NCBI GenBank assembly: GCA_027062035.1
Contig: JAMOUL010000219.1
Coordinates: 1-35,603 of the forward strand
DNA: 35,603 nt
Direction: 5' to 3'
DNA from: Candidatus Aminicenantes bacterium
Lineage (GTDB): Bacteria > Acidobacteriota > Aminicenantia > S016-38
Below are positions 6,912-35,603 of this stretch, one piece after another (position 1 is the first letter of the stretch; the number at the start of each line of letters is the position of its first letter). A program made the position numbers and the translations under genes. The notes below the pieces were generated by a model, which was not told where the DNA came from, searched no databases, and was given only the letters and a program-made list of their open reading frames with translations.

Positions 6912-7437
6912 AGTAATAGAGAAGGGGGCAGATTGGGCGATAATACAGGTTGGAGGTGTGGGTTTTCTTGTTAAGGCAACTTCTTCTGCGCTTCAACGAC
7001 TTTCTGTGGGTGAGGAGGGGGAAATTTTTACCCATTTTCTGATAAAGGATGATGAACCAATTTTGCTGGGTTTTTTTTCGAAGGAGGAGAGGGAAGTTTT
7101 TAAAAAATTGCTGAGCGTTTCTGGAATAGGTCCCAAAACCGCCATGGCTCTTCTTTCAACCATAGGAATAGAAGGATTTCTCGAAGCGGTTGAGAAGGAC
7201 GATGTTGGAGCCCTGAGCAGGGTTCCTGGAATAGGAAAGAAGGGGGCTTCAAGGATAATCGTTGAAATGAAAAACTTTCTTCCTTCCCGGGGCACGGAAA
7301 GCGAAAGGGAGATAATTTCAGCCCTTCTAAACCTGGGTTTCAAAAGATCGGAGGTGGAAGCAGTTGTCAGAGAAATTTCGGGTAAAGGACTTTCCGTTGA
7401 GGATGCCATAAAGGAAGCGCTGAGGAGGTTATCCTGA
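6889..7437 (+). CDS. ruvA: Holliday junction branch migration complex subunit RuvA
   Basis: The canonical N-terminus 'MIERLKGRV' is present, with HhH motifs '[13 protein letters not shown]' and '[12 protein letters not shown]'. The ORF track start at 6877 would add 4 residues. Confidence 0.9.
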
Positions 7438-8432
7438 TGGAAATCCTTTCTCCCAGAAGGCTCGAAGGAGAAGATGTATTTGAGCGTAGCCTGAGACCAA
7501 GAAGTTTTTCTGAATTTATAGGCCAGAAGAACGTTGTTTCCAATCTCAGGGTTTATGTTTTTGCTGCTGCAAAGAGGGGCGAACCTCTTGATCATGTTTT
7601 GCTTCATGGTCCTGCCGGTCTTGGAAAAACGACCCTTGCCATGATAATCGCGAGGGAAATGGGGGCAAGATTGAGGGTGACCTCAGGACCTGCCATAGAG
7701 CGTCCCGGAGACCTTGCTTCCATACTTTCCACCCTTGAGAAGGGTGATGTTCTCTTCATAGATGAAATACACAGGCTTCATCCCTCGGTGGAAGAGGTTT
7801 TGTATCCTGCCATGGAGGATTTTTCCCTGGATATAGTGGTGGGGAAGGGGGCTGGTGCCAGAGACATAAGAATAAAACTTTCACCCTTTACCCTTATTGG
7901 AGCCACGACGAGATTCGCCCGACTCACTTCTCCTTTGAGAAGCAGGTTTGGAATTATAGAGAGGATAGATTTTTATCCCGAAGATGAAATGAAGGAAATA
8001 ATAGAAAGGAGTTGTCGAATTCTGGGAATAGAAATAGAAAATGACGCAAGAGATGAAATAGCCGCCCGATCCCGCGGAACCCCGAGGATTGCCAACCGAC
8101 TTCTTCGGAGAATAAGGGACTTTGCAGAGGTTGAAGGGGATGGAAGGATCACCGGCGAGATAGCCAGAAATGCGCTTGAAAGGTTGAGAATAGACCAGTA
8201 CGGTCTGGATGAAACAGAGCGTAGAATACTGAGAATAATTATCGAAGACTTTGGCGGTGGACCTGTGGGACTTAAGACCCTTGCAGCTGCCATAAAGGAG
8301 GAGGGAGAAACTATCGAGGAGGTCCACGAACCTTATCTTATTCAAAAGGGTTTTCTTGCTCGTACCCCCAGAGGACGCGTGGCTACAGAAAAGGCCTTCA
8401 AATTGTTCTCCCCTGATAGCACCCTGTTTTAA
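7437..8432 (+). CDS. ruvB: Holliday junction branch migration DNA helicase RuvB
   Basis: Walker A '[11 protein letters not shown]', Walker B '[10 protein letters not shown]' and '[16 protein letters not shown]' are present. Confidence 0.95.
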
Positions 8433-14616: not shown

Positions 14617-15713
14617 AGGGGCTGCAGGATAATATTATTGATGTCCTGAAGAAGGCAGTGGAGATGGAAAGTCCCACGGCGGATAGGGAGAGGGTCCATG
14701 CCGTTGGAGAGTGGTTTTCGGACCTCTTTTCAGAATTTTTCCCGGAGAAGAAGGTATATGGTGATGAGCACAGGGTATTTCTACTGAAAAGGGGAAAAGG
14801 GAAATCCCTGTTTCTGTCTCACGTGGATACAGTGCACCCCGTAGGCACCCTTGAACAGAACCCCTTCCGACAGGAAGATGGGAAAATTTACGGACCCGGT
14901 GTCCTGGATATGAAGGGTGGAATTGTTGCCCTTTACTTTGCTCTTAAGCTGGCAGATGAACTGGGGGAACTCCCGGAATTTTCCTTCCTGATGAACACAG
15001 AGGAGGAAACAGGGTCCAGACACACCAGAGATTATATGAAAAGGATAGCCTCACGCTATAAATACTGCTTCAGCCTGGAGCCTTCTGGCCCGGAGGGAAA
15101 GTTAAAAACTTCCAGAAAGGGGGTTATTTCCCTGAAACTTGAGACAAGAGGAAGAATGGCTCATGCCGGGCTTGCCCCGGAGAAGGGTATCAACGCAATA
15201 GATGAACTTATAGACCAGCTGGCAGAACTACGGGAATGGATATCAGTCAGGGAGGGGAGCTTTAATATAGGAGTTATAAGGGGTGGGGACAGACCCAACG
15301 TTGTTCCGGGATCTGCTTATGCCCTTGTGGACGTTCGTTTTGAAGAGGATGGGTTTTCCGAAAAACTGAGGGAGTACATGACAGGAGTTTCTCCCATAAG
15401 GAAGGGAGCCCTGGTTAACCTTACCTTTGAATCCTATGTGCCACCTCTATCTCCCACCCTTCCCCAGAGGAAACTTTATACGAGAATGAAAAAGTTCTTC
15501 TCCGAACTGGGAATTGAACTTGATGAAACCCACTCTGCAGGAGGAAGTGATGCCTCCTGGTTTTCAAAGTGGGGCCTTGTTGCCATAGATGGCCTCGGGC
15601 CTGAAGGGCAGGGCGCACACTCTGAAAATGAACACCTGTATTTTGATTCCCTAAAACAGAGGATATTGATGCTGACCTATCTGGTGCTCAACCTCAGGGA
15701 ATTAGCTCCTTAA
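14583..15713 (+). CDS. M20 family metallopeptidase (carboxypeptidase G2/ArgE-DapE-like)
   Basis: 'SHVDTVHP', 'GPGVLDMKGG', 'NTEEETGS' and 'AGGSDAS' are present. GGAGGT lies 6 nt before the ATG. Confidence 0.85.
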   Translation: MVQRKDIEKRIKGLQDNIIDVLKKAVEMESPTADRERVHAVGEWFSDLFSEFFPEKKVYGDEHRVFLLKRGKGKSLFLSHVDTVHPVGTLEQNPFRQEDGKIYGPGVLDMKGGIVALYFALKLADELGELPEFSFLMNTEEETGSRHTRDYMKRIASRYKYCFSLEPSGPEGKLKTSRKGVISLKLETRGRMAHAGLAPEKGINAIDELIDQLAELREWISVREGSFNIGVIRGGDRPNVVPGSAYALVDVRFEEDGFSEKLREYMTGVSPIRKGALVNLTFESYVPPLSPTLPQRKLYTRMKKFFSELGIELDETHSAGGSDASWFSKWGLVAIDGLGPEGQGAHSENEHLYFDSLKQRILMLTYLVLNLRELAP

Positions 15714-17606: not shown

Positions 17607-18169
17607 AGATATACCTGATAAATACGTATCACCGTGACAGAGAGAAGAAAATTAAAGGATATGTAGAGGTTCTGGAGGAGCTGGGAGCAACGGTAAAGGT
17701 GCTGCTGGAGGATCAGCTGCAAATGGTGGATGGTCCTTCCATAATAAGCGGATCCCACAGGATGGTAGGAGAGGGGGAGGTTTCTAAGGAACTCCTGGAT
17801 TTCATTATGAAAACAAAATATCCTGTTCTGGGAATATGCTATGGCCATCAGGCTATAGCCATGGCATACGGATGGGAAGTAATAAAATGCAAAAAACTTC
17901 ATAAGGGTGATGAAAGAATAAGTAGGGTGCGGGAGCATTTCCTTTTGGAAGGGCTCGAAGAAGAATTCATTATGAACGAATCCCATTACGAATGTGTGAG
18001 AAATACCAGCCATGAGTTTGAGATAATAGCTGTAAGCTTTGATGATGAGGATGGGGAAATTATCGAGGGAATAGTTCACAGGGACAGACCCCTCTTTGGG
18101 GTTCAGTTTCACCCCGAAAGAAGCGGAAATCCTGGAAAAACTCTCCTGAGGAATTTTTTAAAAGGATAA
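17603..18169 (+). CDS. Class I glutamine amidotransferase (GATase1) domain protein
   Basis: The nucleophile elbow 'VLGICYGHQAIA' and 'GVQFHPE' are present. The start overlaps the upstream gene's stop (ATGA). Confidence 0.8.
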   Translation: MKIYLINTYHRDREKKIKGYVEVLEELGATVKVLLEDQLQMVDGPSIISGSHRMVGEGEVSKELLDFIMKTKYPVLGICYGHQAIAMAYGWEVIKCKKLHKGDERISRVREHFLLEGLEEEFIMNESHYECVRNTSHEFEIIAVSFDDEDGEIIEGIVHRDRPLFGVQFHPERSGNPGKTLLRNFLKG

Positions 18170-20893: not shown

Positions 20894-20941
20894 TCACCCG
20901 GGGGTCTGTCCCTAAATTCACCCGGGGGTCTGTCCCTAAAT
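20894..20941. repeat. Perfect tandem direct repeat, 2 x 24 bp (TCACCCGGGGGTCTGTCCCTAAAT), carrying the dispersed core GGGTCTGTCCC
   Basis: The units are 20894-20917 and 20918-20941, and they are identical. The cores are at 20902-20912 and 20926-20936. Confidence 0.95.
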
Positions 20942-20946
20942 TGTCC

Positions 20947-23354: not shown

Positions 23355-23365
23355 GGGACAGACCC
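23355..23365. repeat. Copy of the dispersed core GGGACAGACCC (followed by CTGAT), 8 nt after the ABC ATPase stop
   Basis: This is an exact 11-mer match to the family at 20902, 20926, 25388, 25430 and 26432. Confidence 0.85.
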
Positions 23366-23382
23366 CTGATAGGTCTACAGGG

Positions 23383-23410
23383 TTGACTTTTAAGAATTCT
23401 CTGGTAAAAT
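23383..23410 (+). promoter_or_regulatory. Candidate promoter for the tRNA-Gln/tRNA-Glu pair
   Basis: TTGACT (23383-23388), then a 16-nt spacer, then TAAAAT (23405-23410). tRNA position 1 lies 13 nt downstream. Confidence 0.55.
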
Positions 23411-23422
23411 TAAATACTGCAC

Positions 23423-23497
23423 TGGGAAGTCGTCCAACTGGCAGGACAGCGGACTCTGGATCCGCGAATCGGGGTTCGAATCCCTGCTTCCCAGCCA
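23423..23497 (+). tRNA. tRNA-Gln (anticodon CTG), CCA encoded
   Basis: It was folded by hand. The acceptor is TGGGAAG/CTTCCCA (U1-A72, as in bacterial tRNA-Gln) and the D stem is GTCC/GGAC. The anticodon stem is GCGGA/TCCGC with loop CTCTGGA. The T arm is CGGGG-TTCGAAT-CCCTG, followed by G-CCA. Confidence 0.92.
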
Positions 23498-23502
23498 TAA
23501 GC

Positions 23503-23578
23503 GGGGCTATCGTCTAGGGGCCAAGGACAGATGGTTCTCAGCCATCAGACCCGGGTTCAAATCCCGGTAGCCCTGCCA
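23503..23578 (+). tRNA. tRNA-Glu (anticodon CTC), CCA encoded
   Basis: The acceptor is GGGGCTA/TAGCCCT (G1-U72 wobble). The D arm TCGTCTAGGGGCCAAGGAC is very similar to E. coli tRNA-Glu. The anticodon stem is GATGG/CCATC with loop TTCTCAG. The T arm is CCGGG-TTCAAAT-CCCGG. Confidence 0.9.
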
Positions 23579-25386: not shown

Positions 25387-25398
25387 GGGGACAGACCC
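25387..25398. repeat. Copy of the dispersed core (G)GGGACAGACCC
   Basis: Exact core at 25388-25398, in the context TCAGGGGACAGACCCT. Confidence 0.85.
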
Positions 25399-25424: not shown

Positions 25425-25441
25425 AATCAGGGACAGACCCT
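25425..25441. repeat. Left arm of a perfect 17-bp inverted repeat AATCAGGGACAGACCCT (contains the dispersed core)
   Basis: It is the exact reverse complement of 26431-26447. Confidence 0.9.
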
Positions 25442-25595
25442 ATTATGAAGCACAAAAGAAAAAAAAGATTTTTCAACAATTTTTTTTAACAGATCGATAA
25501 AAAATTATATTTTATTCTGCTATTTCCCCGGGGAAAAGGATTAGAATACTATTTTTTGTAGACTTTTCCCTTGCTTAAATTTTGTGTTTATCTCA

Positions 25596-26417
25596 CTATA
25601 CTATTGAAAGTTCTCCTATTATCTTTTTAAAATTTCTTTTCCATGGAATGATCTGAAGAAGTTTAAACAGAAATTCTTTTCCACCAAAAGCTATACCCAC
25701 TGTTTTATAGTTTAATATGTGTAAAACAATAGGTTCTTGATTTTCTTCTATTTTTCCTGCATTACTTTTGTCGAGTTTCCCCGCTTCTTCCAGAAGTTCT
25801 GCGTATTGTTTTAGTGTCAGGCCGTTGAAAATGTCCGCTATATTCATCAACCATTTTCCGGAAAGGGCTCGCCGTTCTGAGTATGAGGTGAATCTCCACC
25901 CGTCGATTCTTCTTGTTAACCCAGCTCTTACCGGGTTCAAATCAATGTAAGCTGCTACAGCAAGCAAAGCTTTTCCCTCTTCAATCCTTATGGATTTAAA
26001 TCTATCGCTCCACAGGTGGCCTTTTCTTCTGTGGGTTGTGTTATACCATTGGGCAAAGCGTTGTTTTAGATCTTTCATGAATGCGGAAACATCCGATAAT
26101 TTAGCTCTCCAGTAGTTTATGTCATGGGAAGAAACTATACCAGGAGGATATAGTTTCAGAGTTCGACTTAAAACTTCTTCCTCCGTGAGAAGAGAGCCTG
26201 GTCGTACTTTTACAAGTAGATGGAAATGATTGTCCATAATAGCATAGGAGATGACATCCACAAGATAAATTTGAGTCAGTCTTCTGAGGAGATGGAGAAA
26301 ATATTCCTTCTCAAAAGAGGAAAAGGGGCGATGGGCTTCCCAAACCGTGTGAGAAATTAGATGGAAAAAACTTACTTCGTCCCTGGGTTTGAGAAAATTT
26401 CGGGGGATTCGCGGCAT
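25596..26417 (-). CDS. IS200/IS605-family HUH-Y1 transposase homologue, REP-associated tyrosine transposase (RAYT)-like
   Basis: The HUH motif 'DNHFHLLV' and the catalytic Tyr region 'AAYIDLNPVRAGL' are present. Start ATG 26417 lies 4 nt after GGAGGT. The longer ORF to 26573 overlaps the upstream gene and reads through the repeats. Confidence 0.8.
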   Translation of the reverse strand: MPRIPRNFLKPRDEVSFFHLISHTVWEAHRPFSSFEKEYFLHLLRRLTQIYLVDVISYAIMDNHFHLLVKVRPGSLLTEEEVLSRTLKLYPPGIVSSHDINYWRAKLSDVSAFMKDLKQRFAQWYNTTHRRKGHLWSDRFKSIRIEEGKALLAVAAYIDLNPVRAGLTRRIDGWRFTSYSERRALSGKWLMNIADIFNGLTLKQYAELLEEAGKLDKSNAGKIEENQEPIVLHILNYKTVGIAFGGKEFLFKLLQIIPWKRNFKKIIGELSIV

Positions 26418-26430
26418 GGTTACCTCCGAG

Positions 26431-26447
26431 AGGGTCTGTCCCTGATT
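26431..26447. repeat. Right arm of the 17-bp inverted repeat (AGGGTCTGTCCCTGATT), followed by a degenerate second unit and a G5/C5 hairpin (26450-26464)
   Basis: It is the exact reverse complement of 25425-25441. GGGGGAGGTCCCCCCTGATTA follows and repeats the CCCTGATT end. Confidence 0.9.
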
Positions 26448-26467
26448 GAGGGGGAGGTCCCCCCTGA

Positions 26468-34494: not shown

Positions 34495-35603
34495 GTAGTT
34501 CTTCTCTCACCTTTTTTCCTTTTGCCAAGGATCATTTCCATGGCCAGTTTTTTCATGCGTTCTACAGCTGGCTGGTCAAAGGGATTTATTCCCTTCATGC
34601 TGGATATGTACCATACCTGCGATTCCAGAAGGGTTATGAATTGTCCCAGAAATCTTTCGTTTATTTCAGGAATCTCGAAGGAAATGGTCCTTCTTCCTTC
34701 CTGCACCAGTGCTAATTCCGTAGAATCACCCATGAATGAGTATATTTCAGCCAGAGAGCGTCCGGAAAATTCTGTTTCAAGGTATGGATTTTCAGGAATC
34801 TCAATGTCGTGCCTGGCTTTTTTTAACTTCCAGAAGGTATAAACCTTATCGTCAGGCCCGTCAAGGTAAAGCTGGAGTTTCGAGTGCTGGTCCACCGATC
34901 CCATATCAAGAACAGGGGTCTGTCCCCAGCCGTTCTTTCCAAGGCTTTCGCTGTAGAGCTGCCTGTACCAGAGGCCAAGAGGATGGAGATGCTCGCTATA
35001 AACAAGGATTACCTGCATTGGCGAACCTGTTTCGCAGGCGTGATAAAGGAAATATGCTGAAATCAGAGCTGGATTTTTCCGGGGTTCAAGGGATGCAAGT
35101 TCAATTCCTTCCATTCCTCCTGCTATGAGGGCGTCTATATCCACTCCTGCAAGGTAGAGTGGTACAAGGCCCACCGATGAAAGAACAGAGTATCTTCCTC
35201 CCAGACTTTGTGGGATTGGAAAGGATATAAATCCCTCTCTGTCCGCCATTTCCCTCAACTTCCCCTTTTCGGGATCGGTTATAATTATGAACCTTTCCTT
35301 GTTTCTGCCAGCTGCATCAAACAGGAGAAGGAAGTTGATTATTGTTTCGGTGGTTCCGCCGGATTTGGACACAACAATAAAGGCAGTTTTTTCGGGTTCA
35401 AGCAGTTCCATGAGTTCATGCGTTCTTTCAGGGTCAATATTGTCAAAGAAGAAAATTCTCTTTCCCCGGGAATTGTAGGAGAAAGGAAGAAGGGCTCTCA
35501 ATACAGCTTCCGTTCCAAGAGAACTCCCGCCTATGCCGGCAATGACCATGTTTTCTATTTCCATCCCCTCAAGCTCTCCCCTTATCATTTCAGACCATGG
35601 TTC
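34491..35603 (-). CDS. pgi: Glucose-6-phosphate isomerase; 5' end outside the window (frame open to the edge)
   Basis: 'VIAGIGGSSLGTEAV', 'VVSKSGGTTETI', 'GGRYSVLSSVGL' and 'GINPFDQPAVE' are present. The reading frame continues upstream of the first in-window ATG (35588) to position 35603. Confidence 0.9.
   Translation of the reverse strand, partial: EPWSEMIRGELEGMEIENMVIAGIGGSSLGTEAVLRALLPFSYNSRGKRIFFFDNIDPERTHELMELLEPEKTAFIVVSKSGGTTETIINFLLLFDAAGRNKERFIIITDPEKGKLREMADREGFISFPIPQSLGGRYSVLSSVGLVPLYLAGVDIDALIAGGMEGIELASLEPRKNPALISAYFLYHACETGSPMQVILVYSEHLHPLGLWYRQLYSESLGKNGWGQTPVLDMGSVDQHSKLQLYLDGPDDKVYTFWKLKKARHDIEIPENPYLETEFSGRSLAEIYSFMGDSTELALVQEGRRTISFEIPEINERFLGQFITLLESQVWYISSMKGINPFDQPAVERMKKLAMEMILGKRKKGERRTT

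Follow-up and report, generated by a model that had tools for sequence, protein, structure and literature searches.

A Y1 (HUH/Tyr) nuclease gene between inverted copies of a short dispersed sequence: a probable TIRtron of an uncultured bacterial lineage

What is a gene for a Y1-type (HUH/Tyr) nuclease doing between two perfect inverted copies of a short sequence that recurs in the DNA around it? This question is raised by a 35,603-nt stretch of DNA from Candidatus Aminicenantes bacterium (contig JAMOUL010000219.1; hereafter the window, meaning the whole stretch analysed). The original prediction had read the gene and its flanks as an atypical case of a repetitive extragenic palindrome (REP) accompanied by its REP-associated tyrosine transposase (RAYT). 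We find that this reading is right at the level of the protein superfamily and wrong in naming the repeat a REP, and that the architecture already carries a name, TIRtron, given to RAYT-like genes flanked by terminal inverted repeats (TIRs).

Reverse-complementing the sequence AATCAGGGACAGACCCT at positions 25425-25441 gives exactly the bases of 26431-26447, with 0 further matching bases on either side; the perfect 17-bp inverted repeat that had been predicted is thus confirmed and cannot be extended. The sole gene between the arms is, as predicted, a coding sequence (CDS) of 273 amino acids (AA) with HUH and tyrosine motifs (25596-26417; H64-F65-H66 and Y157). The upstream arm (26431-26447, minus strand; core 26432-26442) presents GGGACAGACCC on the sense strand of the gene, 14 nt ahead of the ATG and abutting a GGAGG ribosome-binding site, and the same placement is seen in the related locus L003 and in the paralogue locus L090. 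The downstream arm (25425-25441, plus strand; core 25430-25440) lies 154 nt past the stop codon and is inverted with respect to the gene.

The core GGGACAGACCC is the commonest 11-mer of the window, with nine exact copies at 15286+, 18081+, 20902-, 20926-, 23355+, 25388+, 25430+, 26432- and 34916-. The six intergenic copies counted originally are real; three further copies, in frame within genes, had been missed, which brings the total to nine instead of six. With the preceding base the copies begin [A/G]GGGACAG, as GGGGACAG in three of the nine and as AGGGACAG in the other six, both arms included. In 100 dinucleotide-preserving shuffles of the window, up to one mismatch being allowed, core matches numbered 0.71 on average and 4 at most. 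To look further out, 54.35 kb around the window was reconstructed from the contigs L091 and L093. This longer stretch holds a single copy of the Y1 gene and 10 exact copies of the core, seven of them within about 3.1 kb of intergenic DNA; nine of the 10 are at most 10.5 kb away from the Y1 gene, the tenth is 17 kb to the right, and no core copy was found in the left-hand 25 kb. When all open reading frames of the 54-kb stretch were shuffled among synonymous codons, in-gene copies occurred 0.32 times on average and three or more with a probability of 0.0007, indicating that the motif is favoured by the choice of codons itself. The pattern first noticed is real and far from random.

Alignment of 21 copies from six loci revealed a conserved unit R-GGGACAGACCC-Y of 11-13 nt in unrelated flanks, which makes the extra bases of the 17-nt arms incidental. 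Outside the core these 21 copies share only a purine just before it (-1) and a pyrimidine just after it (+1), and neither a GT[AG]G nor a CGTC tag was found. Folding of single-stranded DNA (ssDNA) for seven copies with their flanks gave z-scores of -1.80 to +0.39 and stems of 3-4 bp at most, none of it significant, and a hairpin model of the REP type was dropped. With no significant hairpin and no such tag the repeat is not a REP, not even the atypical one that had been suggested. Searched for in the literature, the 11-mer turned up only in primers. Across three syntenic species most of the intergenic flanking sequence cannot be aligned, and the sites persist with changed number and position: two 24-nt units in one species against one in another, a shifted copy beside a decayed one, and between one and three copies on the downstream side of the gene. 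The site is an extragenic repeat family, present as solo copies, as 24-nt tandem copies and, elsewhere, as arrays.

The gene between the arms, on the minus strand at 25596-26417 (start ATG 26417-26415, stop TAG 25598-25596), encodes an intact protein, a putative ssDNA nuclease-ligase of the TIRYT type, as judged from a Pfam match, motifs, a structural model and blastp. Its HUH motif is N63-H64-F65-H66 and its predicted catalytic tyrosine is Y157 in YIDLNP (Y157-I-D-L-N-P). In an alignment of 59 homologues H64/F65/H66, Y157 and N161-P162 are invariant or conserved to at least 90%, in agreement with the residues first proposed, and the invariance of HUH and Tyr across the family suggests that catalysis has been retained. 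The expected match to Pfam Y1_Tnp is clear (41.4 bits, cut-off 23), and the NCBIfam models REP_Tyr_transpos and transpos_IS200 score 57 bits (under the cut-off of 80) and 18 bits (under the cut-off of 55), respectively. The AlphaFold2 (AF2) model of the protein (pLDDT 88.7) has as its top match in the PDB the E. coli TnpA-REP with a REP hairpin (4ER8; target-normalised TM-score 0.76, rmsd 2.7), followed by the TnpA proteins of IS200, IS608 and ISDra2.

The references for pairwise blastp comparison, TIRYTs and RAYTs, were typed out from PMC3733652 (Additional file 5). The window protein scored 57-74 bits against eight TIRYTs of the longer type and less against two other TIRYT entries (rba 2408, 45 bits; aba 3477, 32 bits), and the RAYTs of P. 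fluorescens and E. coli gave 48 and 30 bits. It has a C-terminal extension of about 95 AA containing a conserved T/S-S pair, here T177-S178, in which a conserved G..F motif aligns to the tails of TIRYTs. There are two extra insertions, one of about 33 AA, forming three helices, after the HUH strand and one of about 8 AA near the N-terminus; the former aligns with the insertion of 325-AA proteins of Alteromonadales (Shewanella, Pseudoalteromonas), which are of the 2.3 type introduced below.

This type of locus has been known since 2013, when Di Nocera, De Gregorio and Rocco described RAYT-like genes flanked by TIRs instead of REPs, named TIRtrons and TIRYTs, and noted that many of the TIRs share GGGGWSAS and that some are moderately abundant families found in dimers or clusters (PMC3733652). 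Quentin et al. (2018) placed the TIRYTs in their TnpAY1 subclass 2.1, characterised by NH[YF]H or NHVH, Y[IV]xLNP, a C-terminal extension and a mean of about 1.9 copies in each genome, about 49% identical to one another (PMC6006769, motifs in Table 1); the extension carries a conserved serine pair and an HTH-like tail (Bac_DnaA_C / HTH_23 / HTH_28). Their subclass 2.3 is a branch rooted in 2.1, of about 325 AA, with insertions in the core at beta1/alphaA (about 10 AA) and beta3/alphaC (about 55 AA), and it is listed as 'no REP', its genomes carrying several copies that are fairly alike (PMC6006769). The supplements of that paper have no entries for the taxa we searched. In the classification of Bertels et al. 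(2017) the same class is RAYT Group 1, with flanking 16-mers of low frequency only (PMC5581495). The class is not mainly gamma-proteobacterial, which is how the original prediction had described REP/RAYT systems.

The window locus agrees with these TIRtrons in that a Y1 gene stands between TIRs which carry GGGGWSAS, here [A/G]GGGACAG, that NH[YF]H, Y..LNP and the C-terminal extension are all present, that the gene is of low copy number with divergent paralogues (here at 49-62% identity), and that the TIR forms a repeat family, as it does in dimers or clusters in some TIRtron genomes. A classical TIRYT on the metagenome contig L184 is bracketed by the very 11-mer of the window. The locus differs in the three-helix insertion of about 33 AA and the additional 8 AA or so near the N-terminus, in a tail without a Bac_DnaA_C or HTH Pfam match, in an upstream arm whose immediate neighbour is the ribosome-binding site and not a promoter, and in having copies inside genes too. 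Both insertions appear homologous to those of subclass 2.3 (beta3/alphaC and N-terminal), known from 325-AA proteins of Alteromonadales and Chromatiales, and full-length alignment with the Shewanella and Pseudoalteromonas proteins pairs YIDLNP with YVDLNP and shows a common T-S motif. Yet identity to these is only 26-33%, the insertions of the 273-AA window protein are shorter (about 8 and about 33 AA), and two loci of the 2.3 type have no GGGACAG in 6.8 kb. By motifs and pairwise comparison the window protein would thus fall between subclasses 2.1 and 2.3. We put at roughly 75% the probability that the locus is a TIRtron, its protein a member of the TIRYT branch of the RAYT superfamily (subclass 2.1 with a 2.3-like insertion) and its site the GGGGWSAS-type TIR of this lineage. 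As such it is a further example, in an uncultured lineage, of a known architecture, clear but unsurprising.

The pairing of site and gene extends well beyond the window. The core occurs upstream in sense orientation and/or downstream in inverted orientation at six further loci (L003, L004, L087, L089, L090 and L218), whose proteins are 49-71% identical and which represent five different chromosomal contexts. The four paralogues among them all have GGGACAGACCC just upstream, and all except L090 have inverted copies, or a perfect palindrome one mismatch away (GGGACTGTCCC), downstream; inverted downstream copies were found at L003, L004, L087, L089 and L218. We also surveyed 69 non-redundant loci, from Thermodesulfobacteriota, Verrucomicrobiota, Acidobacteriota, Planctomycetota and other groups, with proteins 30-71% identical to the window protein. 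In 43 of the 69 the 300 nt ahead of the gene contain the heptamer GGGACAG in sense orientation, a density of 2.6 per kb vs. 0.065 per kb per strand elsewhere in these loci, and it occurs inverted downstream in 23. In most relatives with an upstream site the site reads GGGACAGG[C/T]AAATAAT, so that a -10-like box follows at once; the window site abuts the ribosome-binding site instead.

The reverse search, started from the site, led back to the gene. Metagenome contigs were scanned for pairs of the exact 11-mer standing in the same orientation within 31 nt, and at least 120 contigs with paired or arrayed copies were found, of 36-77% GC and with array periods of 12, 13, 21, 24, 26, 45 and 71 nt. 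Picked by the paired 11-mers alone, 13 of the 120 contigs listed encode a TIRYT-like protein, several of them in the layout with a sense copy upstream and an inverted copy downstream. This is the case for L184, where a classical 229-AA TIRYT, 54% identical to a published one, is flanked by the same 11-mer, plus upstream and minus downstream. In the contigs of lower GC content 66 of 73 copies are intergenic. A natural control is offered by P0014 (L217, 10001-10804), a relative with 40% identity that has QFH for HFH and LP for NP and is probably inactive as a catalyst: no site flanks it, and L217 and the related contig L214, 40 kb together, have no copy of the 11-mer, in agreement with a coupling of site and gene. 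A specific site is coupled to the Y1 gene over a wide phylogenetic range, among orthologues, divergent paralogues and distant family members.

Within its own lineage the Y1 gene is chromosomally fixed and vertically inherited. A metagenome contig of 110.9 kb encodes the identical protein and shows 8 single-nucleotide polymorphisms relative to the window in 12.5 kb, and orthologues of about 70% protein identity (P0002, P0003) occupy exactly the same site in two other genomes. The gene order PKD-domain gene / Y1 / hypB-like gene / truD is kept in these three species, the conserved site being the end of a T2SSF-PilN-PilO-secretin operon that runs co-directionally with the Y1 gene, as the original prediction had described. 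RuvB of one syntenic genome is 95% identical to RuvB of the window. Near-identical copies of the Y1 protein were not found, and its exact-protein cluster has a single member. Divergent family members are present at four other chromosomal contexts (P0005, 62%; P0006, 56%; P0009, 51%; P0008, 49% identity). The paralogue contigs come from the same samples and have the same GC content as the orthologue contigs, and their tetranucleotide correlations with these are 0.97-0.99 (0.95-0.97 for L218). From such compositional agreement the contigs would belong to the same genomes, and each genome of this lineage probably carries two to four old, divergent paralogues. The single-copy RAYT of the original prediction stands insofar as near-identical copies are lacking, and falls insofar as two to four divergent paralogues per genome are probable.

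A second downstream copy of the core in the window (25388-25398, plus strand) lies just upstream of the conserved TAAAAT box of the hypB-like gene, and its counterpart in L003 and L004 is the palindromic variant GGGACTGTCCC. This palindrome, one mismatch from the core, recurs downstream of Y1 genes in a sister lineage (L003 11220; L004 11116; L087 11009, 11190 and 11311; L089 11111 and 11147; L218 1206 and 1280) and is absent from the lineage of the window. Two copies (20902-20936, minus strand) sit in a 24-nt tandem duplication between an NMO-like and an AlaDH-like gene, about 19 nt upstream of the TTGACT box of the latter; the duplication (20897-20944) consists of two units of atttaGGGACAGACCCccgggtga, and L004 has a single unit. 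A solo intergenic copy (23355-23365, plus strand) follows the stop codon of an ABC-ATPase gene by 8 nt and precedes the -35 box of the tRNA-Gln/tRNA-Glu promoter by 17 nt. In this region (23355-23578, with the two tRNA genes) the promoter, TTGACT/TAAAAT, is identical in three species; in L004 the counterpart of the copy has decayed and a fresh copy stands about 30 nt further out. The three in-frame copies lie in the genes for an M20 peptidase (15286-15296, plus strand; encoding G-D-R-P), a glutamine amidotransferase (18081-18091, plus strand; R-D-R-P) and PGI (34916-34926, minus strand; G-Q-T-P). At the 18081 site L004 has a synonymous C>T change, and the PGI copy is identical in the window, L003 and L004 although nearby third codon positions differ.

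A broader proposal can be built on these results, namely that TIRYT and GGGACAGACCC may form a protein-site pair conserved over much of the bacterial domain, an active HUH enzyme writing or maintaining its own site. We hold it as a tentative idea and think it rather unlikely on balance. What points towards it is the exact 11-mer over a GC range of 36-77%, the bare arrays of 12-13 nt period, the clustering around the gene, the copies set in reading frames by codon choice, and the absence of the site where the catalytic motif has decayed. If true, the pair would have a reach comparable to that of ParB/parS or XerCD/dif. So short a site would be missed by the published 16-mer and hairpin searches, which would explain why Group 1 (subclass 2.1) has been described as lacking a repeat family.

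Under the TIRtron reading that we favour, apart from this broader proposal, the Y1 protein, as a dimer by analogy with IS608 TnpA, would recognise GGGACAG(A/G)CCC with GGGACAG as the invariant determinant, either as a dimer on duplex DNA, given the palindromic variant, or through a mini-hairpin stabilised by the protein. It would nick and rejoin one DNA strand at or beside the site, and strand exchange or slippage between sites would then create, duplicate and remove copies, yielding the tandem units and arrays, with the Y1 gene itself staying put. Binding at the upstream site would probably also limit the protein's own expression; we propose this autoregulation from the position of the upstream site, which in most relatives has a -10-like box beside it and in the window touches the ribosome-binding site. 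Among RAYT-like proteins the TIRYTs (subclass 2.1, Group 1) make up the largest branch, and to our knowledge they have no demonstrated function or substrate. R-GGGACAGACCC-Y with its invariant GGGACAG offers a very short and sharply bounded candidate substrate, ready for binding and cleavage assays. If the protein does make or maintain its sites, 11 bases would be spread through intergenic DNA and even genes, unlike the mobility of REPs and REPINs, and the breadth of exact conservation of the 11-mer together with the in-gene copies merits follow-up.

Several points weigh against such an enzyme-site relation. According to Quentin et al., subclasses 2.1 and 2.3 lack REP-like sequences (PMC6006769). 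A Pfam scan of the C-terminal tail in 59 family members gave no HTH, DnaA_C or other DNA-binding domain model. There is no significant hairpin at the site. Both IS608 TnpA and E. coli TnpA-REP require a hairpin, and we know of no TIRYT that has been studied biochemically. That the Y1 protein binds, cleaves and copies the site is what we infer, and the rise of a solo 11-nt copy at a naive position lies beyond any known Y1 mechanism. The DNA sampled from this lineage was nearly all picked for containing a Y1 gene; with nine of 10 copies within 10.5 kb of it, dispersal is known near Y1 genes and not genome-wide. Several sites stand at corresponding intergenic places across species, and three lie within genes with codon-level enrichment, a pattern that suits selection for a host function as well as it suits mobility, or better. 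The reading we favour accounts neither for the in-gene copies nor for the clustering near the Y1 gene.

The last points lead to the alternative that survives best, although we consider it improbable: the 11-mer would be a host protein-binding or regulatory site under selection, such as an operator or an architectural site close to promoters, bound by a Y1 protein that has been domesticated as a DNA-binding factor and has ceased to create copies, or by another protein. The persistence of sites at corresponding places while their flanks diverge is what such a role would predict, as are the positions of three sites 12-19 nt upstream of -35/-10 boxes (tRNA, AlaDH, hypB), the -10-like TAAT box that follows the upstream site in relatives, and the enrichment of in-gene copies at codon level; the palindromic variant GGGACAGTCCC suggests dimer binding to duplex DNA. 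Against this, HUH and Tyr are invariant in the family, so that catalysis appears to be retained, copy number, spacing and the tandem or array forms differ between species and organisms, and bare head-to-tail arrays with a period of 12-13 nt are hard to read as operators. The conservation of the catalytic residues and the existence of bare arrays speak for enzymatic activity.

A canonical REP/RAYT system, in which the 11-mer would be an atypical REP moved as REP doublets (REPINs) by a single-copy RAYT, is a poorer candidate still and most improbable. Such a system would fit the superfamily, the low copy number and the inverted repeats at the flanks, and many homologues are labelled 'REP element-mobilizing transposase RayT' by JGI. 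The locus also resembles a REPtron (E. coli YafM, 4ER8) in fold and catalytic motifs and in having an immobile, vertically inherited gene between inverted copies of an abundant extragenic repeat. REPs, however, are imperfectly palindromic hairpins of 20-40 nt with a GT[AG]G guide at their foot, whereas the site here measures 11-13 nt, has no GT[AG]G/CGTC tag and forms no stable or significant stem-loop; close inverted doublets are absent from the window, REP_Tyr_transpos stays at 57 bits under its cut-off of 80, and the protein is about 100 AA longer and by blastp nearer to TIRYTs than to the RAYTs of E. coli or Pseudomonas. What stands of the original reading is membership of the RAYT superfamily (57 vs. 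18 bits, and the 4ER8 match) and an inverted, dispersed repeat.

Even less can be said for an ordinary or decaying insertion sequence (IS) of the IS200/IS605 type at the end of the pilus operon, which we regard as highly improbable. It would account for the Pfam Y1_Tnp match and for the absence of a Y1 gene at this place in more distant genomes that have the pilus operon, and the window protein shares with the TnpA of IS608 and ISDra2 the core fold and, by its motifs, the HUH/Tyr ssDNA chemistry. Those proteins have a Y---Q motif and about 150 AA, however, instead of Y---NP (YIDLNP) and 273 AA, and transpos_IS200 gives 18 bits against a cut-off of 55. Their elements have subterminal hairpins on the same strand, multiple identical copies and often tnpB, while the ends here are inverted, a tnpB gene is lacking, and near-identical copies are absent. 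That three species keep the gene in one syntenic position, with proteins about 70% identical, likewise speaks against an ordinary IS, which the original prediction had also set aside. That the 11-mer is a DNA-uptake sequence for natural transformation is hardly credible: it is short, over-represented, non-palindromic, in both orientations, also in genes and adjacent to a type IV pilus/secretin operon, but this 11-mer also stands beside Y1 genes where no pilus genes occur, in organisms of 36-77% GC, related pilus operons in L214 and L216 are without any copy, and its density drops with distance from the Y1 gene. The TIRtron assignment is kept in preference to these readings.

Between the PKD-domain gene and the Y1 gene a G/C-rich hairpin is predicted by folding at 26450-26465, as first described. 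Its stem is kept and its loops differ in L003 and L004, and no T-run follows the stem. It is probably a 3' structure of the pilus operon transcript rather than a repeat unit, and may stabilise the 3' end of that transcript. A consensus scan around the Y1 gene found no sigma-70-like site upstream of it, the sole terminator-like match in this region lies inside the gene, with no excess over shuffles, and an Rfam scan of the whole window returned two tRNAs only.

For RuvB (7437-8432) the named organisms among the matches listed reach at most about 65% identity, and only metagenome relatives 71-95%, which indicates that the window comes from a deep, uncultured lineage. The more distant relatives L214 and L216 have the pilus operon and no Y1 gene behind it. 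A comparison with distant homologues of the PKD-domain gene as empty sites found Y1 absent and the downstream context different as well, so that an insertion boundary is not definable. The pilus/secretin/160-AA/PKD operon is kept in L214 (3012-9360) and in L216, and in L214 it adjoins TraG/TrwB-, TrbI- and T2SSE-like genes.

Among the arrayed sites, bare head-to-tail arrays with a period of 12 or 13 nt occur in L192 (11552-11670) and L195 (1475-1718), with 10 and 19 units; both run into contig ends, and the two metagenomes are unrelated. The verrucomicrobial relatives L020 and L033 have dense short-repeat families of their own, built on the GGGACAG heptamer as GGGACAGGTCAA and GGGACAGGCTC; these number 14 and 18 copies within 20 kb and include an array of 18-nt period.

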